Shown here one piece after another: positions 7,448 to 38,388 of a DNA stretch of 64,000 nt. The stretch covers positions 2,308-66,307 of the forward strand of contig JALOQJ010000006.1 in assembly GCA_025453445.1 (NCBI GenBank), in the 5' to 3' direction. This stretch comes from Candidatus Omnitrophota bacterium. Lineage in GTDB: Bacteria > Omnitrophota > Gorgyraeia > Gygaellales > Profunditerraquicolaceae. Both the position numbers and the translations under genes were made by a program. Below the pieces are notes generated by a model. That model saw only the letters and a program-made list of their open reading frames with translations, made no database searches and was not told where the DNA came from. Within the stretch, counting starts at the first letter, position 1, and each line of letters opens with the position of its first letter.

Positions 7448-7479
7448 TTTACAATTTAGTCTAAGGATGATAATATAAT
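7448..7479 (+). promoter_or_regulatory. possible promoter for gatC giving a leaderless or very short-leader mRNA
   Basis: TTTACA at 7448-7453, 17-nt spacer, TAATAT/TATAAT at 7471-7479; ATG at 7484; no Shine-Dalgarno. Confidence 0.3.
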
Positions 7480-7483
7480 CCTT

Positions 7484-7771: not shown

Positions 7772-7780
7772 GCTATAAAA

Positions 7781-9217: not shown

Positions 9218-10657
9218 ATGAACTACGAAGCAGTTATTGGATTGGAAGTCCACTTACATTTAAAAACCAAAACCAAGGCTTTTTGTGGCTGTTCTACGGA
9301 ATTTGGCCAAGGCGCCAATTCACAGGTCTGTCCAGTATGCTTAGGTTTCCCAGGATCTCTACCGGTTTTAAATAAATTGGCCTTGGATTTTGCAATTAAA
9401 GCAGGGTTAGGTTTAAATTGTACGATTCAATCCCACACAAAATTCGACCGTAAAAATTATTTTTATCCGGACTTACCGAAAAATTACCAGATTTCCCAAT
9501 ATGACATGCCTTTAGCAATTAACGGATATTTGGATATTGATATTGAGGGTAAAACAAAACGCATTGGCATTACAAGGGCTCACCTTGAGGAAGATGCAGG
9601 AAAATTGATCCATAAGGATAGCGAAAGCTGGGTAGATTTTAACCGCACCGGAATACCTCTTTTAGAAATTGTTACTGAGCCGGATATCAGTTCTCCGCAG
9701 GAAGCTTATGAGTATTTGAGCTGTTTAAAAAACATACTTGAGTATCTTGAGATTTCTGATTGCGATATGGAAAAAGGTTCATTGCGTTGCGACGCGAATA
9801 TCTCCCTGCGGCCTAAAGGAGCAAAAGAGCTGGGAGTAAAAACCGAGTTAAAAAATATGAATTCGTTTAAAGGGGTAAAAGATGCTCTGGGGTTTGAAAT
9901 AGAACGCCAGGCTAGAGCGCTGGAAAATGGTGAAAAAATCATTCAGGAAACTCGGCTTTGGAATATCAAAAGCATGGAGACAGTTCCTATGCGCACCAAA
10001 GAAGAGGCGCAGGATTACCGTTATTTTCCTGAACCGGATTTGCCATTATTTTTAATCAGCGCGGAAAAGATAAATGAAATTAATACAAGTATCCCTGAGT
10101 TACCGCGTCAGAAATTAGAGCGTTTTGTGCATGATTACGGTTTATCAGAATACGATGCTAAAATTATTGTTTCTTCCAAAGCATTTGCTTTAACCGCAGA
10201 AAAACTGATAAAGAAATGGCCGAATAAAATAAAAAAACCGTTGGTTAATTGGTTATGTGGTCCGCTTCTTTCTGAAGCAAACTCCAGGAATTTAAGCCCT
10301 GAAGAAATAATAATTCCCGGTGGGGATGATGAGTTAATTGATTTAATCATAGCACAGGAAGAAGGCAAAATTTCTCACCTTATCGCTAAAACTGTATTTA
10401 CTGAATCAATCGCCACAACAACATTGGCTTCAGAAATTATTAAAAAAAAGAATTTGTTTCAAATTTCTGATACCGACAGCTTAAATGCTATGATAGAAGA
10501 AGTTCTTAAAGATAACATTAAGTCGGTTGCGGATTATAGGGCAGGTAAAACTAATGCCGTAATGGCGCTGGTGGGGCAAATGATGAAAAAAACAGGCGGC
10601 AAGGCAAACCCTAAATTAGTGCAGGAGCTTTTAAAACGGAGGCTGGAAAATGCGTGA
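9218..10657 (+). CDS. gatB: Asp-tRNA(Asn)/Glu-tRNA(Gln) amidotransferase subunit B
   Basis: N-terminus MNYEAVIGLEVHLHLKTKTKAFCGC; 479 aa; start abuts gatA stop. Confidence 0.95.
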   Translation: MNYEAVIGLEVHLHLKTKTKAFCGCSTEFGQGANSQVCPVCLGFPGSLPVLNKLALDFAIKAGLGLNCTIQSHTKFDRKNYFYPDLPKNYQISQYDMPLAINGYLDIDIEGKTKRIGITRAHLEEDAGKLIHKDSESWVDFNRTGIPLLEIVTEPDISSPQEAYEYLSCLKNILEYLEISDCDMEKGSLRCDANISLRPKGAKELGVKTELKNMNSFKGVKDALGFEIERQARALENGEKIIQETRLWNIKSMETVPMRTKEEAQDYRYFPEPDLPLFLISAEKINEINTSIPELPRQKLERFVHDYGLSEYDAKIIVSSKAFALTAEKLIKKWPNKIKKPLVNWLCGPLLSEANSRNLSPEEIIIPGGDDELIDLIIAQEEGKISHLIAKTVFTESIATTTLASEIIKKKNLFQISDTDSLNAMIEEVLKDNIKSVADYRAGKTNAVMALVGQMMKKTGGKANPKLVQELLKRRLENA

Positions 10658-11939
10658 AAAATTATTTACCGGCATCATTCTAATTTTAGCTTGTTTTATA
10701 GCCACTTCTTTGGCGCTCTCGGCAATGGAAAAAAAGAAAACAGACGACCTATATAAACAGGTGGAGTTATTTTCCGATTGCCTGGCAATCGTACAAACCG
10801 ATTATGTAAGCGAAGTTGCGCCTCATGACATGATTTACGGCGCGCTAAAGGGAATGATTTCATCGCTTGATCCACACAGCCAGTTTATGGATCCGGAAAC
10901 CTATCAGGAATTAAAAGTCGATACCGAAGGTAAATTCGGCGGCTTAGGCATTGAAATCACAATTAAAGACGGATTATTAACCGTAATTACTCCCATAGAA
11001 GATACTCCAGCCTGGAAAGTAGGTTTAAAACCACAGGACCGGATTGTTAAAATAAATAATGAATTAACCCGTGATATGACCTTAACCGATGCGGTGAAAA
11101 AACTCCGAGGTAGGCCGGGCGAGGCAGTAAATATTGCCGTACTCCGGGAATCAGAAAAGAAAATACTCGATTTTAAGATTGTGCGCGACCTGATAAAGAT
11201 AAAAGATATTAAAGATGTCAGGATTATAGATGACGGTATTGCTTATATACGATTAGTTGAATTCCGGGAAAATACTGCACAAGATTTAGCAACAGCTTTG
11301 GAAAAATTAAAGAAAGATGGTATGACCGGGCTGATTATTGATTTGCGAAATAATCCGGGCGGCTTGCTTGATGCAGCAGTTGAGTCGTGCGAAAAATTCG
11401 TCGAGAAAGGTAAAGTTATCCTTACTACACGCAGCCGGATTCCCAGCCAGAATTTAGAATTTATTTGCCGGGAGAAAAACCCGCTATTAGATATACCGAT
11501 GATCGTAATGATTAATGACGGTTCAGCATCAGGCAGTGAAATACTCGCGGGTTGCCTGCAGGATTATAAGCGGGCGATTATTTTAGGGATCAAATCCTTT
11601 GGTAAAGGTTCGGTTCAGACCGTTATACCTTTAAGCGATGGCTCAGCCTTGCGCCTGACAACTAGTAAATATTATACCCCTTTGGGTAGGGAAATTCACG
11701 GCAAAGGCGTGATTCCTGACATTGTTGTTGAAGAAGGTAAAATTGAACTGGCCCCTAAAGATGATTTACAGGTAGATAAGCCGCAGAATATTTTTGATGA
11801 ACTGGAAAATAAAGACAAACGCTCGAAAGACGGCTCGGATAAGAAGGACGCCTTGACGAAAATGAAATCTGATAACCAATTAATGCGCGCGGTGGATGTT
11901 TTAAAGGCAATTAGAATCTATAAAGGGGCAAAGAAATAA
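10650..11939 (+). CDS. ctpA: carboxyl-terminal processing protease (S41 family, PDZ domain)
   Basis: N-terminal TM/signal; PDZ region; S41 motifs (GSASGSEILAG, KSFGKGSVQTV). Confidence 0.85.
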   Translation: MREKLFTGIILILACFIATSLALSAMEKKKTDDLYKQVELFSDCLAIVQTDYVSEVAPHDMIYGALKGMISSLDPHSQFMDPETYQELKVDTEGKFGGLGIEITIKDGLLTVITPIEDTPAWKVGLKPQDRIVKINNELTRDMTLTDAVKKLRGRPGEAVNIAVLRESEKKILDFKIVRDLIKIKDIKDVRIIDDGIAYIRLVEFRENTAQDLATALEKLKKDGMTGLIIDLRNNPGGLLDAAVESCEKFVEKGKVILTTRSRIPSQNLEFICREKNPLLDIPMIVMINDGSASGSEILAGCLQDYKRAIILGIKSFGKGSVQTVIPLSDGSALRLTTSKYYTPLGREIHGKGVIPDIVVEEGKIELAPKDDLQVDKPQNIFDELENKDKRSKDGSDKKDALTKMKSDNQLMRAVDVLKAIRIYKGAKK

Positions 11940-12722
11940 ATGAAACGTAATAAACTAAAGACGATTATTATTGTACTTGCCGGGCTGATGATTGCTGAAG
12001 GAATAGTAATTATTTGTTTATTGCTTGCGCGGCCGAAAAAACCGGTTATCACAGTAAGGCCGATACAGGGAAGAATCGCGATTGTAATTGATGATTGGGG
12101 TTATCATCAGGATACATTAGGGATTGCCAGCCAAATACATTATCCCTTAACAGCTGCGGTCTTACCGGGTGGAACGCATTCTAGAGATGTAGCAAAAAAA
12201 CTGCATGATATGGGGCTGGAGATAATATTGCATTTACCGATGGAGCCCTTTGAGGAGTATGGCTTGGAAAAAAATACGATTCTTGCCTCTATGAATGAAG
12301 GAAAAATCGTTAAAATCATCTCCGATGATCTTGCTAAAGTAAAATTATGTAAAGGCGTTTCAAACCATATGGGCTCAAAGCTGACTAGCGATCCTAAAGC
12401 AATGGCCGTAGTTTTTAAGGAATTAAAAAAGAGAAAGCTTTATTTTTTAGACAGCTTAGTTACTGCTAATTCCGTTTGTGCGGATTTGGCAAAAAAAATG
12501 CAGCTTAAGTTTGCCAGAAGGGATATTTTTCTCGATAATACGGAAGAGCCTGAATATATCCGGCTGCAAATCGCGAAATTAAAGAAGAAGGCAATAGTTT
12601 ATGGCAGGGCAATCGGTATCTGTCATGACCGAAGAATTACTCTACAAGTCCTAAAAGAGGTTATGCCGGAAATAGCAAGAGAAGGGTTTAAATTTGTTTT
12701 TGTTTCTGAGTTGGTGAGATAA
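11940..12722 (+). CDS. divergent polysaccharide deacetylase family protein (YibQ-like)
   Basis: N-terminal TM; IAIVIDDWGY... HLPMEP... SNHMGS motifs of the divergent polysaccharide deacetylase family. Confidence 0.7.
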   Translation: MKRNKLKTIIIVLAGLMIAEGIVIICLLLARPKKPVITVRPIQGRIAIVIDDWGYHQDTLGIASQIHYPLTAAVLPGGTHSRDVAKKLHDMGLEIILHLPMEPFEEYGLEKNTILASMNEGKIVKIISDDLAKVKLCKGVSNHMGSKLTSDPKAMAVVFKELKKRKLYFLDSLVTANSVCADLAKKMQLKFARRDIFLDNTEEPEYIRLQIAKLKKKAIVYGRAIGICHDRRITLQVLKEVMPEIAREGFKFVFVSELVR

Positions 12723-13687
12723 TGTATACACTGGGCATAGAAACATCCTGTGATGAGACATCTGTTGCCGTAGTAAAATCCGGTAGGACAATTCTTTCCT
12801 GCGAAACATCATCAAGCATGAGCCTGCACAAAAAATACGGCGGAATTGTCCCTGAGATTGCTTTTCGGATGCAGCTGGAAACAATCTCTCTGGTTGCGGA
12901 TTCAGCCATAAAAAAAGCAGGGATTAAATTAAAGGATATAAAACTGGCTGCGGTAACCGATAAACCCGGGCTTTTAGGTTCCCTGCTAGTCGGGATTTCG
13001 TTTGCCAAAGCAGTGGCTTTAAGTTTAGAAGTGCCTTTATACGAGATAAACCATCTATATAGCCATATCTATGCTAATTTTTTAGATACGAAAGAACCGC
13101 CTGCTTTTCCTTTTGTTGCTTTGATTGTCTCCGGAGGCCATACCAGTTTATTCTATATAAGGGATTTTAATAAAATCGAATTGCTTGGTTCAACTCAGGA
13201 TGATGCATGCGGTGAAGCATTTGATAAGGTGGCAAAAATTCTCGGGTTGAAATATCCCGGTGGGCCTTATATCGAGAAGTTAGCCGAAAAAGGGGATTCT
13301 CGAAGAATAAAGTTCGGTTGTTCTGATACGGATAATCCTCTGGATTTTAGTTTTAGCGGTATAAAGACAGCAGTATTATATTATGTTAACCGGAAAATCG
13401 GTAAGCTGGATAATCAGACAGCCGAAGATATTGCTGCTTCATTTCAAAAAACAGTAATTGAAGTATTGGTAAAAAAATCTTTGCTTGCCTGTCGCAAGTA
13501 TGGCACAAATCGACTTGTGGTTGGCGGCGGGGTTGCCGCAAATAATAAATTAAGAGAAACGTTGAAAAAAGAAGCAAGTGCCAATAAAATTAAAGTATAT
13601 TTCCCCACAAAAGCGCTTTGTATGGATAATGCAGCAATGGTAGCTGGCCTTGCTTGGCGCTTACTTAAGAGAGGAGGCGTAAGTTAA
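12722..13687 (+). CDS. tsaD: tRNA N6-adenosine threonylcarbamoyltransferase
   Basis: MYTLGIETSCDETSVAVV N-terminus; Kae1/TsaD family; 321 aa. Confidence 0.9.
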   Translation: MYTLGIETSCDETSVAVVKSGRTILSCETSSSMSLHKKYGGIVPEIAFRMQLETISLVADSAIKKAGIKLKDIKLAAVTDKPGLLGSLLVGISFAKAVALSLEVPLYEINHLYSHIYANFLDTKEPPAFPFVALIVSGGHTSLFYIRDFNKIELLGSTQDDACGEAFDKVAKILGLKYPGGPYIEKLAEKGDSRRIKFGCSDTDNPLDFSFSGIKTAVLYYVNRKIGKLDNQTAEDIAASFQKTVIEVLVKKSLLACRKYGTNRLVVGGGVAANNKLRETLKKEASANKIKVYFPTKALCMDNAAMVAGLAWRLLKRGGVS

Positions 13688-13688
13688 C

Positions 13689-14135
13689 ATGCTTAATGAT
13701 ATGCAAATTGTGCTGAGGTTAGTAGCGTCAGTTTTTTTAAGCGGGCTAATTGGATTGGAACGGCAGGTACAACGCCGGAACGCAGGCTTACGAACACATA
13801 TTTTAGTCTGCCTTGGATCGTGTCTTATCATGTTGACATCGTTATATGTTTTTGATATATATAATGGGGTAGCTTCCATAGATCCGTCCCGCATTGCCGC
13901 AGGCGTAATTACAGGTATCGGTTTCTTAGGCGCTGGAGCGATTTTAAGGGATCAGACAGAAATTAAAGGCTTAACTACTGCTGCCAGCCTATGGATTACG
14001 GCAGGTATAGGCTTAGCTGTTGGCTGTGGGTTTTATACCGGAGCAATTACCGCAACAATATTAACTATTGCTGTACTTCTTGTTTTAAGATATGCGGAAA
14101 GAAAAGTTCTCGACAAAGTGGCTGAAAGAAAATAA
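13689..14135 (+). CDS. MgtC/SapB family membrane protein
   Basis: LRLVASVFLSGLIGLERQ motif and multiple TM helices typical of MgtC family. Confidence 0.8.
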   Translation: MLNDMQIVLRLVASVFLSGLIGLERQVQRRNAGLRTHILVCLGSCLIMLTSLYVFDIYNGVASIDPSRIAAGVITGIGFLGAGAILRDQTEIKGLTTAASLWITAGIGLAVGCGFYTGAITATILTIAVLLVLRYAERKVLDKVAERK

Positions 14136-14148
14136 ATGGAGGTGAAAA

Positions 14149-14652
14149 ATGGCCTTTAAAAGAAAAATGGAAGAAAAAATTCTTGATGTTGATGCTGCAA
14201 TGCAGGGATCTTTAATTTTTAAAGAAGCAGTAAGCCTGAGGATTAACGGTAAATTTGAAGGCAGCCTGGAGACAAAAGGTAACCTTACTATCGGCCCCAC
14301 GGCTTTGGTTTTGGCTGATATCGTCGGGGATAATGTTATTATTGGCGGAAAGGTCAAAGGCAGGATTACCGCAAAAGACAGGCTGACGCTTTTGCCCAGC
14401 GCTATTGTTGAAGGGGATATTTATCCTGCAAAATTAAATATTGCTGAAGGCGCGATTCTCGAAGGCCGTTGCCTGATGCTGCATGATTTTTTAAACAGCG
14501 AAGAACTTGCTCGTTATCTGGAAGTAGATTTAAATTCTATCCTTGAATGGGCCAATTCAGGAAAAGTTCCTGCGGTAAAAGAAGGCGAACACTGGAAGTT
14601 TGAGAGAAAAGCAATTGATTCTTGGATTGCCTCAGGTAAAATTGGCAAATAA
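14149..14652 (+). CDS. bactofilin-domain protein fused to C-terminal excisionase-type (HTH_17) DNA-binding domain
   Basis: Bactofilin repeat GNLTIGPTALVLADIVGDNVIIGGKVKGRITAKDRLTLLPSAIVEGDIYPAKLNIAEGAILEGRCLM followed by LNSEELARYLEVDLNSILEWANSGKVPAVKEGEHWKFERKAIDSWI; strong SD GGAGGTG upstream. Confidence 0.8.
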   Translation: MAFKRKMEEKILDVDAAMQGSLIFKEAVSLRINGKFEGSLETKGNLTIGPTALVLADIVGDNVIIGGKVKGRITAKDRLTLLPSAIVEGDIYPAKLNIAEGAILEGRCLMLHDFLNSEELARYLEVDLNSILEWANSGKVPAVKEGEHWKFERKAIDSWIASGKIGK

Positions 14653-14663
14653 CTTTTTAAAAA

Positions 14664-14978
14664 ATGGCAGATGAAAAACTTTTAACCATCAGGGATGTTT
14701 CTCATGCTTTAGGCATTTCAGAGAAAGAAGTAATTGATCTCTCTGAAAACGGCGCTATTCCTGCCTATAAAATCGGCGGGGTATATTTAAGATTCAAACG
14801 CCAACAGGTGGATGAATACAGAAAAAAACACCCTGCCCAACACAAAGAAAAACCCGGCGGAAAAAAGAAGTATTCTTACTCAGACAGGGTAAGCGACTTT
14901 TTCTACTTCAATGATTTTTATATACTGGCGCTTATTGTTATCATTCTTATGCTTTTTATTATATTTCGAGGATATTAG
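14664..14978 (+). CDS. excisionase-type HTH (HTH_17) DNA-binding protein with Lys-rich linker and C-terminal transmembrane anchor
   Basis: LLTIRDVSHALGISEKEVIDLSENGAIPAYKIGGVYLRFKRQQVDEY; C-terminal hydrophobic FYILALIVIILMLFIIF. Confidence 0.7.
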   Translation: MADEKLLTIRDVSHALGISEKEVIDLSENGAIPAYKIGGVYLRFKRQQVDEYRKKHPAQHKEKPGGKKKYSYSDRVSDFFYFNDFYILALIVIILMLFIIFRGY

Positions 14979-14983
14979 GAGCA

Positions 14984-15658
14984 ATGCGAGCAAAACAAGG
15001 TTTCTGCGATTTGGGGTTTGCCAAAATAGATACGGACAGGCTTAACCGTAAAGGTTTCCCCGAAGTAATCTATTGTCCTGGAAAGGATAAAATCCATTTA
15101 AAAAAGATATCCGGCGCCTTAATAAAAAATTGCCAGGATCTGCTTTTGACGAAACTCGAAAAAAACAATTATTTATACCTTAAAAAATTTTTGCCTAAGT
15201 TAAAATATAATACTTTAGCAAAGCTAGGTTATTGCCTACAGTTACCAAATAAGAAAACTGTAGGTTTAGTAGCAGTAATTTCCGCAGGGACTTCGGACTT
15301 GCCGGTTGCTGAAGAAGCAGCGGCTACGCTGGAAGTAATGGGCAATAATGTGGCACGGATTTATGATGTAGGTGTTGCCGGAGTCCACCGTTTAATGCAA
15401 AATCTCACGGTGATAAAAAAAGCCAGCGTAATTATTGTTGTTGCCGGCATGGAAGGGGCTTTGGCAAGCCTGGTGAGCGGATTGGCAAAAAGCCCGTTAA
15501 TTGCCGTACCTACCAGCTGTGGTTATGGCGCTAGTTTTGGCGGATTAGCTGCATTATTAACAATGCTTAACAGCTGTTCACCGGGAGTTGTGGTTGTAAA
15601 TATTGATAATGGTTTTGGAGCAGGATATTTTGCCAGCTTGATTAATAAAAAGGAGTAA
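14984..15658 (+). CDS. larB: nickel-pincer nucleotide cofactor biosynthesis protein LarB (PurE-like carboxylase/hydrolase)
   Basis: GFPEVIYCPGK... AVISAGTSDLPVAEEAAATLEVMGNNV... VAGMEGALASLVSG motifs of LarB/PurE-like family; 224 aa. Confidence 0.75.
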   Translation: MRAKQGFCDLGFAKIDTDRLNRKGFPEVIYCPGKDKIHLKKISGALIKNCQDLLLTKLEKNNYLYLKKFLPKLKYNTLAKLGYCLQLPNKKTVGLVAVISAGTSDLPVAEEAAATLEVMGNNVARIYDVGVAGVHRLMQNLTVIKKASVIIVVAGMEGALASLVSGLAKSPLIAVPTSCGYGASFGGLAALLTMLNSCSPGVVVVNIDNGFGAGYFASLINKKE

Positions 15659-15664
15659 CTAACT

Positions 15665-16990
15665 ATGGCGCTTTCAGGTTTAGACATCTATAAGTTATTA
15701 CCAAAAACTAACTGCCGCGAGTGCGGCTTTGTTACTTGCCTTGCTTTTGCAATGCAGCTGGCAAAGAAAGCAGTAAGTATTGATAAATGCCCTTATTTAA
15801 GCCCGGATGCAAAGAAAACGCTTGAGACTTCCGGACAGCCGCCAATTAAGTTGGTTACGATAGGATCTGGCGAGGAGAAATTAGCAGTAGGTAATGAAAC
15901 AGTCCTTTTTCGCCATGAAGAGAAATTCCATAATCCATGCGGCATAGGCTCTATTCTTAATGATAATTTAAGTGAAAACGAAATAAAAAAACAACTGGAT
16001 ATAATCAATAAACTGAAATTTGAGCGCATCGGACAAGCCTTAGAGGTAAATCTTGTAGCAATTAAACAAAATTCTACCGCGGAAAATTTTCTTAAAGCAG
16101 TTGCGTGTGTTATGAATAATACGCGCTTAGGTTTGGTATTAATGACTGCTGAACCAAAGGCATTAAAAGAAGCCTTAAAAATTACTAAAGACAGACGGCC
16201 TCTTATTTATAGCCTAAGTGGTGATTACACAGAAGTTGCTCAATTAGCAAAAGAATTTAATGCGCCGCTTGTGGCAATAGCGCAAAATTTGGAAGCACTT
16301 TCTAGTTTAACGCAGGATTTAAACAAGCAGGGTGTTTCGGAAATAGTTTTAGATACAGGCATTAAGCCTATAAAAGACAAGATTTGGGATCTGACGCAGA
16401 TACGCAGGCTGGCGCTGAAGAAATCAAACCGCAGCTTAGGATATCCTATGCTAGTAGTGGTCGATAAAAATGATCCTGTTGAGGAGGCAATGGAGGCAGC
16501 CAGCTATGTTGCTAAATATGCCGGAATTATTTTGTTAAAAAATGTAAACACCGCAGAGGCCTTGTCATTATTAACCCTAAGGCAGAATATCTATACTGAT
16601 CCGCAGAAACCGCTGCAGATAGAGCCCAAGCTTTACCCAATAGGTAATGCTGATAAAAATTCGCCTCTTTTAGTTACTACAAATTTTTCGCTTACATATT
16701 ACACGGTATTGGGAGAAGTTGAAGCAAGTAAAATACCTTCTTATATTTTAAGCGTAGATACTGAGGGAATGTCAGTCTTAACTGCTTGGGCAGCGGAAAA
16801 GTTCACTCCGGAAAAAATCAATGATTCAATTAATAAATCCGGAGCAAAAGAGGCAGTGGCGCATAAAAAAATTATTATTCCGGGCTATGTGGCTGTAATG
16901 AGTGGTGATTTAGAAGAAGCTTCGGGGCTGCAGGTAATTGTCGGCCCTAAAGAAGCAGCAGGATTACCAGCGTTCTTGAAAAATTTGTAA
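15665..16990 (+). CDS. acsC: corrinoid iron-sulfur protein large subunit (acetyl-CoA decarbonylase/synthase gamma subunit)
   Basis: N-terminal [4Fe-4S] motif CRECGFVTCLAFAMQLA...KCP; ~441 aa; next to acsD/acsE. Confidence 0.85.
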   Translation: MALSGLDIYKLLPKTNCRECGFVTCLAFAMQLAKKAVSIDKCPYLSPDAKKTLETSGQPPIKLVTIGSGEEKLAVGNETVLFRHEEKFHNPCGIGSILNDNLSENEIKKQLDIINKLKFERIGQALEVNLVAIKQNSTAENFLKAVACVMNNTRLGLVLMTAEPKALKEALKITKDRRPLIYSLSGDYTEVAQLAKEFNAPLVAIAQNLEALSSLTQDLNKQGVSEIVLDTGIKPIKDKIWDLTQIRRLALKKSNRSLGYPMLVVVDKNDPVEEAMEAASYVAKYAGIILLKNVNTAEALSLLTLRQNIYTDPQKPLQIEPKLYPIGNADKNSPLLVTTNFSLTYYTVLGEVEASKIPSYILSVDTEGMSVLTAWAAEKFTPEKINDSINKSGAKEAVAHKKIIIPGYVAVMSGDLEEASGLQVIVGPKEAAGLPAFLKNL

Positions 16991-17031
16991 AATAGATAGT
17001 TTCGCGTGTGTCTTGTTTGTATTTTTGCGGG

Positions 17032-17322
17032 AACGTTTGCCCCGCCCCAGCGTGGCGGGGCTGCACTTCGTTCCAGCCCCTCGCTCTCCCGCAGCCGGGC
17101 CGTGGATAAAAGCGTTTTTCAATTAAGGAGCCGGCTGCGGGAACCGTGCCCGCTCGGGGGCTTCCAAGATCCCGCAAAAACACAGCCAAGCCCCACGCTT
17201 TGAAAGTTAAAGATACTTTTAAGTAGTTATATTTTAGCGGGTGGCTGACGAGACGAAGACCTTGCCGCCCGCAGCGAATAGCGAGGACGGCGAGGTGGAT
17301 CGGCAGACAGGACCCGCTAAAA
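17032..17322 (+). ncRNA. GC-rich (~60% GC) highly structured non-coding element with two tandem stem-loop domains; candidate structured RNA/leader of unknown class
   Basis: Domain 1 closed by tttttgcggga(17032-42)/tcccgcaaaaa(17170-80), containing gccccgcc-ccagcgt-ggcggggc and cccgcagccgg/ccggctgcggg stems; domain 2 closed by ttttagcgggt(17232-42)/acccgctaaaa(17312-22); no credible ORF. Confidence 0.5.
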
Positions 17323-17364
17323 ATTCAATAATATAAAGTTACATTTTATCCGGATAATAAGACT

Positions 17365-19197
17365 GTGGAGGTCGCCAAAGACACGACGATTTTGAATGCG
17401 GCTATTTCTGCAGGAGTCTATATTAAGTCTGCCTGCGGCGGGGATGGGGTATGCGGGCAATGTAAGGTCATTTTAAAAAAAGGAAAGGTTGCGGTTCAGC
17501 CGGCTGGCAGGTTGAGCCCGGAAGAAAAACAAGCAGGAATTCACTTGGCTTGCTTAAGTGAAGTGCATGGAGATTTGGAAGTAGAGATTCCCCCAGAATC
17601 AAAATTGGATTTTGAAAAACTTACTACAGATGCTTATTCAGCAGCAGAAGAAATCGAACCTCCGGCATCAATAATAAAAGAAGGGATTTTTAAACACTCA
17701 CCCCTGGCAACTAAAATTTACCTGGAGCTACCTCAGCCAAACCTTAATGATAAAATTAGTGATTTAGAAAGGCTTTACCGGCAGCTTGCAAAAATAAAAG
17801 TACCGATTTCGCAGATAAGTTTAAGCAATATTAAACGGCTGGGAGAATTACTGCGCGATTCAGACTGGAAAGTAACTGCTACTTTAGCAAAGAAGGATGG
17901 CGTTACGGAAATCGTCCATCTTGAATCAGCTGATACCTCAGGAAAAAATTTCGGGATGTGCTTTGATATCGGCACAACTACAATTTCCGCGCAATTAGTA
18001 GATTTAAATTCAAAACATACTTTAGGCGCAAAAGCCGCTTATAATAAACAGGCTAGTTTTGGCAGCGATGTGATTACGCGGATTATTTATGCCCGGGAAA
18101 AAGACGGATTGGAAAAATTACACAATGCTGTAGCTGAAGAAATGAACAGAATGATCCAGGAATTAATTAAAGAACATAATATTGATTTAAATGACGTAAA
18201 TTGCGTTGTCTGCGCCGGCAATACAACGATGATACAGCTGCTTTTAGAAATAGACCCCAGCTATATCAGAAAAGAGCCCTATGTACCTACTGCTAACTTT
18301 TTACCGGTAATCCGCGCCTCAGAAGTAGAAATAAATATTAACCCCCGCGGCCTGCTTTTCTGCGTTCCGGGAGTTTCCAGCTACGTTGGGGGCGATGTCA
18401 GCGCCGGGGTTTTATCATGCGGGCTAAACAAAGCTAAAAATTTAAGCCTCTTGATTGATATAGGCACAAACGGTGAAATAGTTTTAGGCAATAAGGACTT
18501 TTTAGTGGCATCTGCTGCTTCAGCAGGCCCGGCATTTGAGGGTTCAGGCTTAAGCTGCGGTATGCGCGCATCAGCAGGAGCAATAGAAAAAGTTAAAATT
18601 AATCCGAAAAACTTCTCCGTTGAATATAAAACAATTGGCAGTGCCCGCGCCCGCGGCATCTGCGGCTCAGGCTACATCGATATTATTTCAGAAATGCTGC
18701 GCACGGGATTGATAGATAAGCTTGGCAGGATGAAATCCGGATACAACAAAGAATTCATTATTGTTAAAAAAGAAGAGGCGGATTCTTCAGCTGATATTAT
18801 TATCAGCGAAGCGGATATCGAAAATATTAAACGCGCCAAAGCAGCGATTTATTCGGCAGCATCAGCGTTAATTCGGCATATGGGTTTCGATTTTAAAGAT
18901 CTTAAAAAAATATTTATTGCCGGCGGGTTTGGTACTTCTATTGATATAGAAAAGGCAATTACCATAGGGCTTTTGCCGGGATTAAATAAATCACGTTTTG
19001 TTTTTGTCGGTAATAGCTCGCTTGCCGGAGCCCGGCAGATACTTTTATCAGAAGAAGCAATGGAAAAAGCTGAAAAAATCGCCAAAAAAATTACTTATTT
19101 GGAATTATCAGTGGAGCCATCATATATGGACGAATATATGGCAGCTTTATTTTTTCCGCATACTGATTTAAACAGGTTTCCTTCAATTAGGCATTAA
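17365..19197 (+). CDS. corrinoid activation/regeneration protein (RACo-like): N-terminal [2Fe-2S] ferredoxin domain + ASKHA-type ATPase domain
   Basis: CGGDGVCGQCKV 2Fe-2S motif; ~600 aa; position in acs cluster. Annotated GTG start at 17365, but an upstream in-frame KVTFYPDNKT (17335-17364) suggests a different real start. Confidence 0.8.
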   Translation: MEVAKDTTILNAAISAGVYIKSACGGDGVCGQCKVILKKGKVAVQPAGRLSPEEKQAGIHLACLSEVHGDLEVEIPPESKLDFEKLTTDAYSAAEEIEPPASIIKEGIFKHSPLATKIYLELPQPNLNDKISDLERLYRQLAKIKVPISQISLSNIKRLGELLRDSDWKVTATLAKKDGVTEIVHLESADTSGKNFGMCFDIGTTTISAQLVDLNSKHTLGAKAAYNKQASFGSDVITRIIYAREKDGLEKLHNAVAEEMNRMIQELIKEHNIDLNDVNCVVCAGNTTMIQLLLEIDPSYIRKEPYVPTANFLPVIRASEVEININPRGLLFCVPGVSSYVGGDVSAGVLSCGLNKAKNLSLLIDIGTNGEIVLGNKDFLVASAASAGPAFEGSGLSCGMRASAGAIEKVKINPKNFSVEYKTIGSARARGICGSGYIDIISEMLRTGLIDKLGRMKSGYNKEFIIVKKEEADSSADIIISEADIENIKRAKAAIYSAASALIRHMGFDFKDLKKIFIAGGFGTSIDIEKAITIGLLPGLNKSRFVFVGNSSLAGARQILLSEEAMEKAEKIAKKITYLELSVEPSYMDEYMAALFFPHTDLNRFPSIRH

Positions 19198-19200
19198 GTT

Positions 19201-19947
19201 ATGGGACATGTAATTTTAGTAGCAGGAAAGGGCGGCACAGGAAAAACTACGATTAGCGCGTTGTTAGTCAGGCTGCTGAAAGAAAAAAAAGTTGGTTCTG
19301 TTTTAGCAGTAGATGCCGATCCGAACAGTAACCTGGCGGAAACTCTTGGGTTCAGCCCAAAAGAAACCATTGGTTCTATCTTAAATGATATCTCAACGCA
19401 TCCGGAGCATATCCCAACGAGCATGCCTAAAGACAGGTTTATTGAATATCGGGTACAATCGGTAATTCAGGAGGAAGAGGGTTTTGATTTATTAACTATG
19501 GGCAGGCCAGAAGGCCCAGGCTGCTATTGTTATGTTAACACGGTATTAAGGAATGTTATGGAAAAATTAGTCAACGATTATGATTATATCATTATCGATA
19601 ATGAGGCAGGACTGGAGCACCTTTCACGCAAGATTACCCGTTCAGCCGAGGCATTGGTTGTAGTCACTCAAGACACAAACGTTAGTTTAAAAGCAGCAGC
19701 GAGAATCCGCGGCATTGCTAAAGAGCTTGATATTAGAACTAAAAAAAATCTTTTGATTATTAATCGTACGGATAAGAATATCGAACAGGAGAAAATAAAA
19801 CATTTAGATCTGGATTATGCAGGTTATGTGCCTGAAGACGAAGAAATTACTAAAATGAGCTTCGACGGCAATTCTTTGCTTAAACTAAATAGCCAGGCAA
19901 TCAGCATCGATGCTTTACGCAAAATAGGAGAAAAAATATGGAGTTGA
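19201..19947 (+). CDS. cooC: CO dehydrogenase/acetyl-CoA synthase nickel-insertion accessory ATPase (CooC/AcsF family)
   Basis: Walker A VAGKGGTGKTTISALL; MinD/ParA-like fold; in acs cluster. Confidence 0.8.
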   Translation: MGHVILVAGKGGTGKTTISALLVRLLKEKKVGSVLAVDADPNSNLAETLGFSPKETIGSILNDISTHPEHIPTSMPKDRFIEYRVQSVIQEEEGFDLLTMGRPEGPGCYCYVNTVLRNVMEKLVNDYDYIIIDNEAGLEHLSRKITRSAEALVVVTQDTNVSLKAAARIRGIAKELDIRTKKNLLIINRTDKNIEQEKIKHLDLDYAGYVPEDEEITKMSFDGNSLLKLNSQAISIDALRKIGEKIWS

Positions 19948-20843
19948 TGTTTGAAAAATGGGCAGGCGCTGTTTCTGTATTAAATATTGGAGCAACTAAA
20001 GAAGAGGGCGGCACGCGCGCGAAAACGATTCAAATCGGCGGAGAAAAAACACTGCCGTTTTTATTTGCCGAGGGCGCCTTGCCGCATAAACCAGTGATTG
20101 CTTTTGAAATCTGGGATGTTCCGCCTCAAGACTGGCCGGGAGAGAAAGATGTTTTGTCCTGGGCTGAAATTTGCGCCAAGGATTACGGCGCAGAATTGCT
20201 TTGCCTGCGTTTACAGGGATCTCACCCTGATTTTGGCAATAAAAGCGCTGCTGATCAGGCAAAGTTAGTGGTACAACTATTAAAAAAGGTTTCTCTGCCT
20301 CTGGTAATTTTAGGTTGTGGTGATGATACAAAAGACAATCTGGTCCTGCCTGCATGTTGTGAGGCAGCCCGTGGCGAACGCTGTTTAATTGGCAGCGCCA
20401 CGCAGGATAGTTATAAAACTTTAACCGCCGCTGTTCTAGCAGACGGGCACAATATTATTGCCGAATCCCCGATTGATATTAACATTGCCAAGCAGCTGAA
20501 TATTCTCATCTCTGATATGGGCCTAGCCTTGGAACGTATTGCTGTTAATCCAACCATTGGTGCTCTGGGCTACGGACTAGAATATGCTTATTCCATCATG
20601 GAACGCGCACGGCTGGCAGGGCTTTCCGGAGACAAAACCTTGGCTTGCCCTTTTATTTGTTTTGTCGGACAGGAAGCCTGGAGAGCGAAAGAAGCAAAAG
20701 AAGCCGGAATAGAACAGGGAATTCTCTGGGAAGCAATTACTGCTACGGCTTTAATTCAGGCTGGTGCAGATTTATTGGTTATGCGTCATCCTAAGGCGAT
20801 CGAAAAAGTAAAAAAATATATCGGAGGACTATTTAGGAGCTAA
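19938..20843 (+). CDS. acsD: corrinoid iron-sulfur protein small subunit (acetyl-CoA decarbonylase/synthase delta subunit)
   Basis: ~300 aa CdhD/AcsD-like TIM-barrel protein between cooC and acsE. Confidence 0.75.
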   Translation: MELMFEKWAGAVSVLNIGATKEEGGTRAKTIQIGGEKTLPFLFAEGALPHKPVIAFEIWDVPPQDWPGEKDVLSWAEICAKDYGAELLCLRLQGSHPDFGNKSAADQAKLVVQLLKKVSLPLVILGCGDDTKDNLVLPACCEAARGERCLIGSATQDSYKTLTAAVLADGHNIIAESPIDINIAKQLNILISDMGLALERIAVNPTIGALGYGLEYAYSIMERARLAGLSGDKTLACPFICFVGQEAWRAKEAKEAGIEQGILWEAITATALIQAGADLLVMRHPKAIEKVKKYIGGLFRS

Positions 20844-20845
20844 AA

Positions 20846-21634
20846 ATGTTTATTATCGGTGAACTTATTAACGGTATGTACGCTAATATCGGCAGGGCAA
20901 TTAAAGAAAAAAACAAAGCAATTGTCCAAAAGTGTGCCCTAGAACAGGTAAATTCCGGCGCAGATGCTTTGGATGTTAACTGCGGCCCGGCTTCGCATAA
21001 TCCACTAAGCGATATACAATGGTTGATTGAAACTATCCAGGAAGTAACTGATAAACCTCTGGCTTTAGATTCCAGTAAAATAGAGGTAATCGAATCGGGC
21101 TTGAAGGTTATAAAAAATAAACCGATTATCAACTCTACTACTGCTGATAGCCAAAAATTGGAAAAGCTTATTCCTTTGGCAAAAAAATATCAGGCTAAAT
21201 TAATCGGCCTGACAATCAGTTCTAAAGGCATACCGCAGAACAAAGACCAGAGGCTAGAGCTGGCAGCTTTGATAATTGCCGCTTGCATTGATCATGATTT
21301 TTCCGTAGAAGATCTTTATCTTGATCCGATAGTCCTACCGGTTAACGTTGCTCAGGCACAGATGAAAGATATTCTGGAATCAATTAAAGAATTTAAAATT
21401 ATTTCTGAACCCTGCCCGAAAACTATTGTTGGTTTAAGCAATGTTTCCCAGGGGACAAATACCCGCAGCCTGATTAACCGCACATTTTTGGTGATGGCTA
21501 TTGCCAACGGCCTAGATGCGGCGATATTAGATCCTCTTGATTCAGAATTGATTGATGCTGCAATTACCGCGGATTTAATCCTGAATAAACAAATATACTG
21601 CAATTCTTATTTGCAGGCATACAGAAAGAAGTAA
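20846..21634 (+). CDS. acsE: methyltetrahydrofolate:corrinoid iron-sulfur protein methyltransferase (pterin-binding)
   Basis: 262 aa; pterin-binding (DHPS-like) fold; MFIIGELINGM...ALDVNCGP N-terminus typical of AcsE. Confidence 0.8.
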   Translation: MFIIGELINGMYANIGRAIKEKNKAIVQKCALEQVNSGADALDVNCGPASHNPLSDIQWLIETIQEVTDKPLALDSSKIEVIESGLKVIKNKPIINSTTADSQKLEKLIPLAKKYQAKLIGLTISSKGIPQNKDQRLELAALIIAACIDHDFSVEDLYLDPIVLPVNVAQAQMKDILESIKEFKIISEPCPKTIVGLSNVSQGTNTRSLINRTFLVMAIANGLDAAILDPLDSELIDAAITADLILNKQIYCNSYLQAYRKK

Positions 21635-21635
21635 A

Positions 21636-22025
21636 ATGGCACACAACAAACTGATTAGGCGCATATTGGGTTTACGTGGATTCTGGGAAAGCCTGAAGTT
21701 TGCATTAAGAGGCATGCTTTACCTCTTTGCTTATCACCGTAATATGCGGATTATTTTCACTACCGGGATAATCGTATTTTTTATCGGTTTGTTTATCATT
21801 AAATTATCCGGCCTTGAATTGGCAGTTTTGTGTATTACGATTACAGTTGTTTTTATCGCAGAGATATTCAATACGGCTATCGAGCTGGTCCTCGATATGA
21901 CGCAAAATAAATACCATACTCTGATAAAACTGATTAAAGATATTGCTGCGGGAGTAGTCTTAATTGCCTCTTTAAACGCGCTTGCCGTGGGCCTGATCCT
22001 TTTTATAAAAAAATTACTAGTTTAA
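21636..22025 (+). CDS. dgkA: diacylglycerol kinase / undecaprenol kinase family protein
   Basis: 129 aa, 3 TM; IAEIFNTAIELVLD motif typical of DgkA. Confidence 0.8.
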   Translation: MAHNKLIRRILGLRGFWESLKFALRGMLYLFAYHRNMRIIFTTGIIVFFIGLFIIKLSGLELAVLCITITVVFIAEIFNTAIELVLDMTQNKYHTLIKLIKDIAAGVVLIASLNALAVGLILFIKKLLV

Positions 22026-22031
22026 CTTTCC

Positions 22032-22646
22032 ATGCCTAAAAATATAATTATTGCCTTAACTGCCGGATTTATAATACTGGCATTAGCCTTTGCATCTGTT
22101 TTACGCTATTTTAACCGCCGGGACGCAGTCAGTTTGCGGCAAGCAAGACAGCTGGAACAAGAAAAAGAAGAAGCAGAATTTAATCAGGCTAAACTTTTGG
22201 AAGAGTTGAAAAAACAAAAATATGACGTAATCGCCTTTGAAAGTGCTTTGGCTACCGTGGAACTTCCGGCTTCCGAGAAATACGCTGATCAGGAAAAAAT
22301 AATGAAGCAGCTGAAAAGCGGCGAAGTATCCGTGTACGCCGCTTCTGATGCAATTAACGCGACTAAAATCCAGTGTGAAAAGGCCCAGAAAGAAATTATG
22401 TTTATCCGGGTCCCTGCGGCATTGCCAAAAACAACCCAGAAGCAGTTAGAGGAGGTAAAAACAGATATTGCCGCGGGCTACGCTAAAAAAACAGTGGCTT
22501 TAGATTATCTATTAAAATTTCTCGATGATGGTAAGCCGTTGTATGAGCGTAAATTTAACGAAAGCTTGAAAGATGCCCGTCAGTTTTCTACTAGCGCAGC
22601 GCTCAGCCTGTTGGAAGTAAAAAAGAAGGTAGGGTTTGAATTTTAA
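22032..22646 (+). CDS. membrane-anchored coiled-coil hypothetical protein
   Basis: N-terminal TM (IIIALTAGFIILALAFASVL) then charged/coiled-coil region; no known domain. Confidence 0.6.
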   Translation: MPKNIIIALTAGFIILALAFASVLRYFNRRDAVSLRQARQLEQEKEEAEFNQAKLLEELKKQKYDVIAFESALATVELPASEKYADQEKIMKQLKSGEVSVYAASDAINATKIQCEKAQKEIMFIRVPAALPKTTQKQLEEVKTDIAAGYAKKTVALDYLLKFLDDGKPLYERKFNESLKDARQFSTSAALSLLEVKKKVGFEF

Positions 22647-22679
22647 AAATATTGTGTTAAAATAAGCCTGCAATTATAT

Positions 22680-22756
22680 GGCGGAGTAGCTCAGCCTGAT
22701 AGAGCACGCGGCTCATACCCGCTTGGTCGGTGGTTTAAATCCACTCTCCGCCACCA
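22680..22756 (+). tRNA. tRNA-Met (anticodon CAT), elongator type, CCA encoded
   Basis: Cloverleaf: acceptor ggcggag/ctccgcc, D arm gctc..gagc, anticodon loop ctCATac, T arm ggtgg-tttaaat-ccact, 3' ACCA; G1-C72 paired; could alternatively be tRNA-Ile2 (lysidine). Confidence 0.85.
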
Positions 22757-22762
22757 ACTTTC

Positions 22763-24013
22763 CTATTTTAATCTACTCATGATTTTTAGGGTCAGGACAA
22801 GAATCCCCAATTCGATAGCTACGGTAGAAAAAGCAGCTCCCAGGTAAGAAAAAAGCCATACTGAATATAATAATACCGGAAGGCCAACCCATGCTGCTGC
22901 CACATGGATGCGTGAATAAATTTCGGATTTTCCACTCACTAACAAAAACTGAGTCCTAAAAGCATTAGCTACCACGAAGAATACCCCGACTATAAGAAAC
23001 CTTAAAGTAATTATCGTTTCGGGATAAGCTTTGCCACAAATAACGCGGACGATCAAAGGCGACAATAAAATAGCAATCGGCAGGGAAAACATGTAAGTTA
23101 CGGTAGTGGAGTGCTGCAGGCGGTACATTAATTTAAGCGAACGCTTTTTATTCTTATGAAAAATTTTGCTTAAACGCGGGTAAACTGCCTGTGTAAAAGC
23201 ATCTAAAGGGAATGATTGTATAACCCCGGCGATCTTTTCGGCAATAGCATAAAAGCCGGTCAGGGTATTGTTTGTTAAAAGGCCGACAATAAAAATCCGG
23301 GTTGTGGTATAGGTATTTATGGCAACCGTAGAAATAAAAATATTCCAGCCGGTTTTTAATTCTTCTTTAATATCTTTATAAGTCTGAAATACATACTCCA
23401 ACTTAAATTCCCTGAAAGCGATGCGCAGGCCGATAAAACCGGTAACCAGAAAAAATAGTGAATTAAAAAACGGTAGAAGCAGGTAATCTCCGGGGCCTTT
23501 GATAAAAACAAATACGGAAAGTGCATAAATTATGCCGCCGATAATGTTAATTGAAGCAGTATAAATCATTTTTTCTTTTCCTTGAAAAAACCAGGCAGGG
23601 AAAAGAGTATTACCAATGACTGCGCCAAAACTTAGAACAAAAATCAGCCATTCATTCCTGAAGCGGGGGATAAAATAAACTATTGCGGCCATAACCAGGA
23701 AACTTAGGGCAGCAAGTATGATCTTTACCGTCATTACCGAAGAGAAAATTGCGCAGGCTTTATCTTCAGCACATAGTGAAATTTTTCTTGTCGCAGAAAG
23801 GCTGAAACCATAATCTGTAATAATCATAAAATATTGCACGAATGACTGAGCAAAGGCAATCAGGCCGAATTTTTCCGGGCCGATTACCCTGATTAAATAA
23901 GGCAAAACCAGTATCGGCAGGATATAGTTTATGCCTTGCAGGGTAGAAAGGGAGAAAAAATTCTCCAAAACAATTTTTTTCTCAGCATGAGTTATAATTT
24001 TATGCTTAGCCAT
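22763..24013 (-). CDS. oligosaccharide/polysaccharide flippase (Wzx-like, MOP superfamily)
   Basis: 416 aa, ~12 TM helices, PST-family pattern. Confidence 0.75.
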   Translation of the reverse strand: MAKHKIITHAEKKIVLENFFSLSTLQGINYILPILVLPYLIRVIGPEKFGLIAFAQSFVQYFMIITDYGFSLSATRKISLCAEDKACAIFSSVMTVKIILAALSFLVMAAIVYFIPRFRNEWLIFVLSFGAVIGNTLFPAWFFQGKEKMIYTASINIIGGIIYALSVFVFIKGPGDYLLLPFFNSLFFLVTGFIGLRIAFREFKLEYVFQTYKDIKEELKTGWNIFISTVAINTYTTTRIFIVGLLTNNTLTGFYAIAEKIAGVIQSFPLDAFTQAVYPRLSKIFHKNKKRSLKLMYRLQHSTTVTYMFSLPIAILLSPLIVRVICGKAYPETIITLRFLIVGVFFVVANAFRTQFLLVSGKSEIYSRIHVAAAWVGLPVLLYSVWLFSYLGAAFSTVAIELGILVLTLKIMSRLK

Positions 24014-24118
24014 AAAATTAATTTACACTCGAAAATGCACGAAGTCAATATTTAAAATAACGTAAACAAATTTTGCTTTTAGCTTTACGCCCTGTGAATT
24101 AAGTGTTAAAATCTAACC

Positions 24119-25084
24119 ATGATTAGAGATAAAGTAAAAGGCACAATCGGCAAATATAAGCTGCTTTGTAAAAACGATAAAATCGTCATCGGCCTCTCCG
24201 GCGGGCCGGACTCAGTGGCGTTGTTATATTTATTAAACGGCCTAAAAAAAGAGTTTAAACTCCACCTGTATGCTGCGCATTTAGACCATGGCATCAGAAA
24301 AAGTTCAAAACGCGATGCTGAATTCAGCGCCTGTTTAGCAAACAAACTAAAAATTCCATTTTTTACAAGTAGAATTAATATAAAGGAGCTTGGAGGAAAA
24401 GGTTCGCTTGAAGAAATCTGCCGTAAAGCACGCCTGATTTTTTTATCCCAGATTGCCAAGGAGACCGGCGCTGATAAAATCGCATTAGGGCATAATCTCG
24501 ACGATCAGGCAGAAACCGTACTTATGCGTATCTTACGCGGCTCAGGGCTTTACGGCCTATCGGCGATACTGCCAAAAAGAACGATCAATGGCTTTGAAAT
24601 TATCAGGCCTTTAATTAATATTCAGCGTAAAGAAATAGAAAAGTACCTAAAAAAAATTAAGGTTAATCCGCAAATCGATAAAACAAACTCAAAGGATATT
24701 TACCTGCGCAACAAAATCAGGAATAAACTCATGCCGGTGCTGGAAAAGGAGTATAATTTAAATGTGAAAGTTGCCTTGAGCAACCTTGCGCAATCAAGTG
24801 CCTTAGATTACGATTATCTGGCCGCGCAAGCCAATCGAATCATGAAAAAAATAGGTAAAAAGATCGATCTGAAAAAATTCAGCCTGTTGCACTTGGCAAT
24901 GCAAAGAATGATCCTGCGCCGCCATATTGCCGAAATTAAAGGAGATACACGCAAAGTAGATTTTCAGCACATCAGAGAGATTGAGGAGTTGATTTCCAGC
25001 CGGCCATCAGGAGCTATTGTTGACCTGCCCAAAGGCGTATCTGCAGTAAAAAAGGGGAATTTCCTGTCTTTTTACAGAAGGTAA
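24119..25084 (+). CDS. tilS: tRNA(Ile)-lysidine synthetase
   Basis: PP-loop GLSGGPDSVALL; 321 aa. Confidence 0.9.
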   Translation: MIRDKVKGTIGKYKLLCKNDKIVIGLSGGPDSVALLYLLNGLKKEFKLHLYAAHLDHGIRKSSKRDAEFSACLANKLKIPFFTSRINIKELGGKGSLEEICRKARLIFLSQIAKETGADKIALGHNLDDQAETVLMRILRGSGLYGLSAILPKRTINGFEIIRPLINIQRKEIEKYLKKIKVNPQIDKTNSKDIYLRNKIRNKLMPVLEKEYNLNVKVALSNLAQSSALDYDYLAAQANRIMKKIGKKIDLKKFSLLHLAMQRMILRRHIAEIKGDTRKVDFQHIREIEELISSRPSGAIVDLPKGVSAVKKGNFLSFYRR

Positions 25085-25141
25085 ATTGTTTAATAAATCC
25101 TTGATTTTATAGCCACTTAAATATATAATATAAAATCTAAA

Positions 25142-27034
25142 TTGGAGAAAAAAATGCTAAATCAAAAGAACTTGAAAGCTAAGAAAAATAAGCTTTTCAA
25201 CCGCTCACCATGGGGTTGGATAGTGGTAATTTTCATTGTTTATCTTCTAGTAAGTTCACTGAATGTATCAGTTAATGGTGTGCCCAAAGAAATCACTTAC
25301 GGCAGTTTTTACCAGGTTTTGAAACATAATCCAGAAAAAATTATAGCCCTGACTAAGGTTGAAGTAGAACTTACCGGTGAGTTCAGTGAGCCAATAAAGA
25401 TTAATAACGAAAATATTAAATTATTCAAGGTGAATATCCCTGATAATGACCAGGAGTTGCTGGGGTTAATCAGGCAGAATGTAGCGAATTTTCAGGTTAA
25501 ACCTGCGCGTACCTTTTGGGCAGCCTTAATTTTTAACTTAGGCCCGATACTATTGTTAATTTTCTTCTGGTGGTTTATGGCTGCTAGAGGAGAACAATTG
25601 GGTAATCGAATCATGGGTTTTGGGAAAGCTAGGGCGGCAATCCATAGTGAAACAAACGAAAAGGTGACTTTTAATGACGTAGCAGGAGTAGATGAAGCTC
25701 GGGAAGAATTACAGGAGGTAATTGAATTTTTAAAGGACCCGAAAAAATTTCAGCGCTTAGGCGGTAAAATTCCCAAAGGAGTATTACTCGTCGGGCCTCC
25801 AGGCTGCGGTAAGACCCTGATTGCCCGGGCAGTTGCCGGAGAAGCGGGTGTACCGTTTTTTAGTATTTCGGGCTCGGATTTTGTCGAAATGTTCGTCGGC
25901 GTAGGCGCATCCCGCGTGCGTGATTTATTTGATCAGGGAAGAAAAGCCGGAAAAACTTCCGGAAAAGGCGCTATTATTTTTATTGATGAAATTGATGCTG
26001 TTGGCCGCTTGCGTTTTTCCGGTATTGGCGGAGGGCATGACGAAAGAGAGCAAACCCTAAACCAACTATTAGTAGAAATGGATGGTTTTGATACTGATCA
26101 GGGATTGATTTTAATTGCCGCTACTAACCGTCCGGACACGCTTGATCCGGCATTGTTAAGGCCGGGAAGATTTGACCGCACGATTATCGTTAATCTTCCG
26201 GATATTAAAGGCAGGGAAGAAATTCTTAAGGTACATACTCGTAAAATAAAACTTGCTGCTAATGTTGATTTAAAATCTATTGCCGCACAAACTCCGGGTT
26301 TTTCCGGTGCAGATCTGGCAAATCTCTGTAATGAAGCAGCTTTATTGGCTGCCCGGCATGGCAAGGAGGCGGTAGAATTGTTTGAATTTGAAAGGTCAGT
26401 GGAAAGAGTGCTGATGGGGCCGGAAAAAAAGAGCCACATTATATCTAAAAAAGAAAAAGAAATTACTAGCCTTCATGAATCCGGGCATGCACTTCTTTCG
26501 CTGCTGCTGCCGCAGGTAAATACTTTAAAAAAAGTTTCCATTATCCCCCGCGGTTTAGCTGGCGGCTATACCTTTACTCCGCCTGCTGAAGACAGGCATT
26601 ACTGGACAAAAAAAGAATTAATCGCTGAAATTACCCTGATGTTGGGCGGCAGAGCATCAGAAGAAATAAACCTGGATGAAGTTACTACTGGCGCGCAGAA
26701 CGACCTTGAAATGGCAACAGGCATGGCGCGGCGCATGGTTACCCAGTTTGGCATGTCAGAAAAAATAGGTAATGTTACTTTGGGCAAACGGGAAGGTTTA
26801 TTGTTCCTCGGCCGTGATATTATGGAGGAAAAAAATTACAGCGAACAAACCGCGCGCCTTATTGATGAAGAAATTAAACTTATCGTAGATAATGCCTATA
26901 CCCAGGCTAAAAATCTATTGCAGCAGAATTCAGAAAAACTAAAGGCCTTGTCCAATGCCCTTATTGAAAAAGAGGTCCTAAGCGGAGAAGAAGTTAAAAA
27001 ATTACTGGGGATAGAAAAACAAGACTTAGTTTAG
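25142..27034 (+). CDS. ftsH: ATP-dependent zinc metalloprotease FtsH
   Basis: AAA+ Walker [19 protein letters not shown] zinc motif; 630 aa. Confidence 0.95.
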
Positions 27035-34045: not shown

Positions 34046-34048
34046 CAA

Positions 34049-34123: not shown

Positions 34124-34155
34124 CTTTTTAAAGCAGATAAAAGGAGGGTGAAGAA

Positions 34156-38377: not shown

Positions 38378-38388
38378 AGGAGGAAAGA

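Follow-up and report, generated by a model that had tools for sequence, protein, structure and literature searches.

How does translation begin in a gene whose conserved N-terminus is encoded, in frame, upstream of every canonical start codon? The question is raised by a RACo gene within the stretch of DNA analyzed here (the window; 64,000 nt in all), which reads CAA TAA TAT AAA GTT ACA TTT TAT CCG GAT AAT AAG ACT GTG GAG GTC across the region where the protein should start. ATG, GTG and TTG are absent from the codons that separate the in-frame TAA from the GTG at 17365 (0/11), and that GTG is the first canonical start, as the initial annotation had recognized. A product begun there (V15), or from the TTG at 17392 (L24), would be without the entire first strand of the N-terminal ferredoxin domain. 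The initial annotation had read the upstream codons as this strand, and offered three ways out of the puzzle: a non-canonical initiator, a sequencing error, or an unusual start tied to a structured element immediately upstream. Its reading of the strand is sound, given that a full-length database protein (P0001) matches the 621-aa frame from 17332 at 100% identity, although the tally of 10 codons from 17335 overlooked the TAT (Y) at 17332-34 and should be 11. The features discussed below are collected in Table 1.

Table 1. Coordinates of the RACo start region and its surroundings, numbered from the first letter of the window.
Feature	Position	Strand	Remarks
acsC, large subunit of the corrinoid iron-sulfur protein, upstream of RACo	15665..16990	+	Pfam CdhD, E 6e-101, plus FeS domain
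el1, GC-rich structured repeat module of 197 nt, bounded by imperfect terminal inverted repeats of ~29 nt	17003..17199	.	
el2, 82-nt rod-like hairpin repeat module	17237..17318	.	
In-frame TAA stop; in the intact allele directly 5' of ATG ACT ATG GAA AAA	17329..17331	+	
Deletion junction	17330..17331	+	15 bp of L001, L025 and L002 missing
Orphaned codons YKVTFYPDNKT, residues 4-14 of intact RACo (strand beta-1 and turn)	17332..17364	+	
Longest canonical ORF remaining, GTG start, 610 aa, RACo residues 15-624	17365..19197	+	
cooC/acsF-type nickel-insertion ATPase	19201..19947	+	Pfam CbiA and AAA_31
acsD, small subunit of the corrinoid iron-sulfur protein	19938..20843	+	Pfam CdhD
acsE, methyltetrahydrofolate:corrinoid methyltransferase	20846..21634	+	Pfam Pterin_bind

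That the gene is RACo-like, as first proposed, is borne out by domain content, structural alignment and genomic context. The frame from 17332 matches Fer2 (Pfam, E 4e-12), which is the N-terminal plant-type [2Fe-2S] ferredoxin domain, together with RACo_linker, Raco_middle and RACo_C_ter (Pfam, E 6e-19 to 1e-98). It aligns collinearly with the crystallized RACo of Carboxydothermus hydrogenoformans (3ZYY; residues 1-622 to 1-630, E 3e-166), and its nearest named database relatives are Candidatus Omnitrophota. The four cysteine ligands expected of the [2Fe-2S] domain are present, in a pattern, C38-x5-C44-x2-C47...C77, that is invariant among 32 Omnitrophota homologues; what the window copy lacks is residues 1-3 and the start codon. 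Within 15665-21634, RACo is encoded beside its substrate, CoFeSP (acsC/acsD), and the methyltransferase acsE. By sequence, then, the gene appears to be an ordinary RACo within a Wood-Ljungdahl cluster, RACo being the enzyme that reductively activates the corrinoid iron-sulfur protein at the expense of ATP. In activators of this type, electrons are donated by the [2Fe2S] cluster, carried on the plant-type ferredoxin domain, and a flexible link connects this domain to the ASKHA ATPase core (PMC7317905).

Homologues place the missing N-terminus precisely. The best database match is P0001, a protein of 624 aa beginning MEKYKVTFYPDNKTVEV..., which exceeds the window frame by three N-terminal residues (MEK-YKVTFYPDNKTVEV...). 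Alignment of homologues had been suggested as a means of judging whether the first strand is needed, and it is kept: the K-[V/I]-T-F-x-P strand occurs at residue offset 4 in 108 of the 122 homologues checked (88%), and the N-termini listed are nearly all M-[E/D]-K-[F/Y/L]-K. In 3ZYY the N-terminus is MAEYKVLFKPDQK, and its residue 1 pairs with residue 1 of intact RACo. The Carboxydothermus and window proteins share the motif M-x-x-Y-K-V-x-F-x-P-D-x-K, the four Pfam domains and the acs-cluster context; between the Carboxydothermus enzyme and P0001 there is no notable difference, whereas the window copy departs from it in having lost the start codon and codons 2-3 through a 15-bp deletion.

The deletion becomes apparent on comparison with sibling assemblies. 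Two public contigs encode P0001: one from JGI (3300037461, 28.5 kb; L001, or L025 in its longer form) and one from NCBI (GCA_025490975.1; L002). In BLAST alignments, L001 matches window positions 11338-25197 with 0 mismatches over 13,875 bp and a single 15-nt gap, L025 spans 7338-26186 (18,864 bp, 1 mismatch) with the identical 15-nt gap as its only interruption, and L002 shows the same gap with 1 mismatch in 3.6 kb. The bases absent from the window are ATG ACT ATG GAA AAA, aligned at 17329/17332 (alignment A1). In L002 the extra bases read ATGACTATGGAAAAA, and in the same alignment the siblings have ...CCCGCTAAAAATTCAATAA ATGACTATGGAAAAA TATAAAGTT... where the window has ...TTCAATAA TATAAAGTT..., the placement of the gap being ambiguous over a 2-nt AA microhomology (17329/17330 through 17331/17332). 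RACo in the siblings begins MEKYKVTFYPDNKT, and the 624-aa products called there have MEK at the N-terminus and match the window frame at 100% identity. The initial annotation had foreseen that a corrected sequence might create an upstream ATG; assemblies that are otherwise near-identical to the window do contain one.

More distant loci, to which the initial annotation had also pointed, tell the same story. At the homologous point, both a more diverged strain (L003, from ENA; flanking genes 82% identical at the nucleotide level) and an orthologue with 74% identical RACo protein (L004) read ATG GAA AAA TTY AAA GTT, and the gene order acsC, RACo, cooC, acsD, acsE is common to the window, L001, L003 and L004. 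The occurrence of ATG GAA AAA in L001/L025, L002, L003 and L004 alike argues that the ancestral and normal start of RACo is a plain ATG, and that the deletion is private to the window. That the siblings and L003 are instead the aberrant sequences is effectively excluded, since MEK is conserved among homologues. The loss of these 15 bp takes away both candidate ATGs along with the codons for E2 and K3, and sets a pre-existing upstream TAA directly against codon Y4. The first strand stays in frame because the number of bases lost is divisible by three and because the event is apparently recent, with only 1 SNP in 18.9 kb between the window and L025. The reading we favor, at a probability of about 0.93, is that the window RACo is apparently startless through this 15-bp loss, its native start being a plain ATG and its first strand having been kept in frame. 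As such, the window copy resembles an ordinary gene lesion or pseudogene-type annotation problem, in which a start codon is lost to a small deletion or an assembly indel: a single in-frame indel is private to it, the siblings being otherwise near-identical, and an annotator has fallen back on a downstream start to give a 601-aa product. Nothing about it is unusual by that standard, the sole special point being the multi-copy repeat that adjoins it.

Initiation at a non-canonical codon within 17332-17364, so that the first beta-strand would be translated with no ATG, GTG or TTG, is the more exotic answer. Conserved non-AUG initiation is known, as in the case of infC, which uses AUU. The window RACo bears a superficial likeness to genes of this kind in that conserved N-terminal residues are encoded with no canonical start ahead of them, and its 11 upstream codons are indeed intact and in frame, a conservation of frame that first prompted the idea, but that intactness is explained by the recent loss of a multiple of three. 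Furthermore, infC-type genes conserve the unusual codon among orthologues, whereas at the orthologous position here no conserved non-AUG/GUG/UUG initiator was found, all siblings and orthologues having ATG GAA AAA. Nor do the 11 codons offer a plausible initiator: AUA, AUU, AUC and CUG are all missing, and the only near-cognate, AAG at 17359, lies two codons ahead of the GTG. No near-cognate codon in a ribosome-binding context was seen, the TAA being followed directly by TAT AAA GTT with no Shine-Dalgarno in view. We consider non-canonical initiation, as suggested at the outset, highly improbable.

A more prosaic proposal holds that GTG 17365 (or TTG 17392) is the native functional start, in a lineage whose RACo has a shortened ferredoxin domain. 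No listed homologue begins at the GTG-equivalent, although one listed N-terminus (MPDNKT...) is truncated near there, and the full-length gene is present in near-identical genomes. Structure also weighs on the matter. An AlphaFold2 model of P0001, with a mean pLDDT of only 65 but 84-85 over residues 1-20, has strands at residues 3-9 and 13-18, so that residues 1-14 hold all of strand beta-1; the domain affected is the one whose [2Fe2S] cluster is the electron donor of the enzyme (PMC7317905). On the other hand, RACo without its whole N-terminal domain has been crystallized (4C1N chains align from residue 126), the ATPase core folding alone; GTG 17365 does open the longest canonical ORF, and a 601-aa NCBI record is consistent with use of the TTG. 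Inspection of the sequence upstream of GTG 17365 revealed no Shine-Dalgarno (GGAGG-type) motif, in a window where ~58% of long ORFs have a Shine-Dalgarno-like motif. Overall, a native downstream start is very improbable, and loss of an ancestral ATG remains our preferred account.

The spacer between acsC and RACo (16991-17331) deserves separate attention. At 65-75% G+C, against 41% G+C for the window, it folds far better than shuffled sequences (z = -4.7 to -6.2), which vindicates the early suggestion of a structured element upstream. Two modules make up this cassette. The terminal arms of el1 are 29 nt long and 83% complementary, and the folding z-scores of the module are -4.8 (+ strand) and -6.1 (- strand); across 14 aligned copies, compensatory double changes are seen at 20 of the 49 predicted pairs, for example GCCCCGCC/GGCGGGGC vs GCATTTCC/GGAAATGC vs GCACCGCC/GGCGGTGC. 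The hairpin of el2 folds with z -6.2. At gathering thresholds over the whole window, Rfam returned no family for the structure, and at E-value thresholds over 16900-17450 and four other loci it returned only CbSR3 in the window region, at a chance-level E of 6.4, and one unrelated weak hit. A hammerhead ribozyme was considered for el2, which has CUGACGAG in the window, and was rejected: most copies have CUGCCGAG, breaking the core, and Rfam is silent. Terminator-like sites were absent from the results of a promoter/terminator scan, in which the promoter-like hexamers were all weak.

Far from being peculiar to RACo, the modules are widely dispersed. BLAST identified ~21 further copies of el2 (94-100% identical) and 16 further copies or fragments of el1 (72-97% identical) on other contigs; a 22-nt core of el2 matched 16 metagenome contigs, almost every one of them from a single JGI sample, and el1 also occurs in two Omnitrophota MAGs in a genome collection. 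Scans of viral contigs for the el1/el2 cores gave no matches. The copies outside the window lie on L003, L006-L021, L023 and L024. Apart from overlap with the starts of two probably over-extended ORFs (L014, L017), copies are intergenic, the nearest gene end usually being 4-50 nt away; they face either way with respect to their neighbors, which are unrelated genes such as cysS, tmk, uvrC, miaA and fabF, among others. The two modules usually sit ~50 nt apart, but occur separately in L006 and in opposite relative orientation in L011. Gene callers and ORF finders read through the modules (L003 7777-7932, L006 5339-5551, L014 1898-3268 and L017 9407-10210), giving small spurious ORFs or N-terminal extensions, for instance of UvrC and LigT.

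In these respects, the cassette behaves like a modular intergenic repeat of the MITE/REP/BOX type, rather than a RACo-specific leader. Small non-autonomous repeats of this kind in bacteria—MITEs, REP/BIME and BOX-type modular elements—have been reviewed (PMC10969869, PMC3184786). Like them, el1 and el2 are multi-copy, shorter than 400 bp, intergenic, found in both orientations and devoid of a gene of their own, and they share terminal inverted repeats, stable hairpins and modules that occur together or apart. They differ in that neither a target-site duplication nor a cognate transposase was identified: the flanks of 14 el1 copies contained no convincing duplication, and ten neighboring ORFs scanned beside repeat copies included no transposase (8 gave housekeeping-type Pfam families, 2 no match). 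They differ further in being modules of 65-75% G+C in a 41% G+C genome, with no Rfam family. No paper linking Omnitrophota with MITE/REP/BOX-type repeat terms came up in a literature search, and the el1/el2 family is apparently undescribed.

Could such an element nevertheless drive an unusual start, whether by ribosome shunting or bypassing, or by providing the start codon itself, as an intron or an invertible switch might? Its GC-rich fold is very stable and extends to ~17323, leaving 6-8 nt to the junction, and L003 carries the same cassette in the opposite orientation, the whole of it being reversed at 7571-7938 relative to window 16991-17331. Yet L004 has no cassette at the orthologous site (2997-3001), where only 3 nt separate acsC from RACo. 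RACo thus has the same ATG GAA AAA with the cassette forward, reversed or absent, and the cassette therefore plays no part in the RACo start. The repeat is, moreover, dispersed between genes beside unrelated housekeeping functions in both orientations, and matches no Rfam family, introns and riboswitches included. An element-driven start, the last of the original proposals, can be given almost no credence, and a plain ATG lost from the window copy accounts for the gene.

The reversed cassette of L003 raised the related prospect of an invertible promoter switch, which was rejected as the simplest reading given that the elements are dispersed genome-wide and that the two copies belong to different repeat subfamilies. 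The el1 of L003 is 92% identical to copies elsewhere and 77.6% to the el1 of the window, which in turn is 93.6% identical to the L020 copy; between the window and L003, conservation is highest for el2 (98.8%), then the flanking genes (82%), then el1 (77.6%). Since the two el1 copies fall into different subfamilies, their arrangement points to independent insertion or turnover, and not to a simple inversion. The acsC-RACo spacer has been hit or turned over more than once.

Two further places in the window drew notice in their own right. Directly 5' of tRNA-Pro(GGG) (34049-34124), which was found by ARAGORN and is absent from the Rfam gathering-threshold listing, lie two tandem copies of a ~50-nt unit (33946-34047; …aatattgagatgcatgcgggggcgtgccccgttgcatctccacaa), each with a hairpin and a stretch resembling the 5' end of this tRNA. 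The second GC-richest island, 38258-38390, is coding: in it, ORF 37514-38377 ends with a C-terminal glycine-rich, low-complexity tail of the GGSGGGGG type, after which comes a strong ribosome-binding site (AGGAGG) serving the next gene.

Returning to the start of RACo, the initial annotation had counted a sequencing error among its options. A sequence lesion there is, in the form of the 15-bp deletion that emerges from comparison with the siblings and that no observation contradicts; as to its nature, a genuine recent deletion allele is slightly favored over an assembly or consensus artefact. The contig is otherwise near-identical to its siblings, and so is not a noisy assembly, and the junction has only 2-nt microhomology, with no repeat long enough for a de Bruijn assembler to skip 15 bases. 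An artefact is suggested by the occurrence of the deletion in one of three assemblies (1/3) of a near-clonal population, and by the proximity of the junction (6-8 nt) to a multi-copy repeat prone to contig breaks, L002 for example ending inside el2. The lesion shows in the public record as well, where the protein of this contig, MCU0651715.1 (NCBI; same protein cluster, 74,463-bp contig), is a 601-aa product, compared with 624 aa for the intact protein. Its size suggests a start at TTG 17392 (L24) and a truncated call caused by the deletion, and is consistent with an annotator having been forced to the downstream TTG. Database look-ups for other contigs encoding a 610-aa or 601-aa product returned none, so that the deletion allele is known from this one source; this, too, weighs towards an artefact.

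Were this a real allele, RACo would be a null or hypomorph: any product would start at GTG 17365 (V15) or TTG 17392 (L24), without strand beta-1 of the cluster-binding domain, and no Shine-Dalgarno was seen before GTG 17365. A bolder scenario, which we regard as doubtful, would have the deletion as a genuine allele at consensus frequency in one sample, knocking down RACo and lying at the edge of an undescribed el1/el2 repeat family, in which el2 may have a role as a functional RNA or as a DNA hairpin that binds protein; insertion and turnover of the repeats would have displaced an ancestral acsC-RACo junction of 3 nt, at which translation was probably coupled, and left the RACo initiation region prone to mutation.

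These results have no bearing on how translation is initiated, RACo having a normal ATG start that is lost in the window copy. For users of public data, the 601-aa protein is a truncated call, to be treated as a lesion or verified against reads. The el1/el2 family is a modest, separate lead, as a repeat that breaks assemblies and inflates ORF calls in Omnitrophota genomes. For strain-level metabolic inference the point is a small one: were the deletion real, this would be a population with a defective activator of the Wood-Ljungdahl corrinoid protein.
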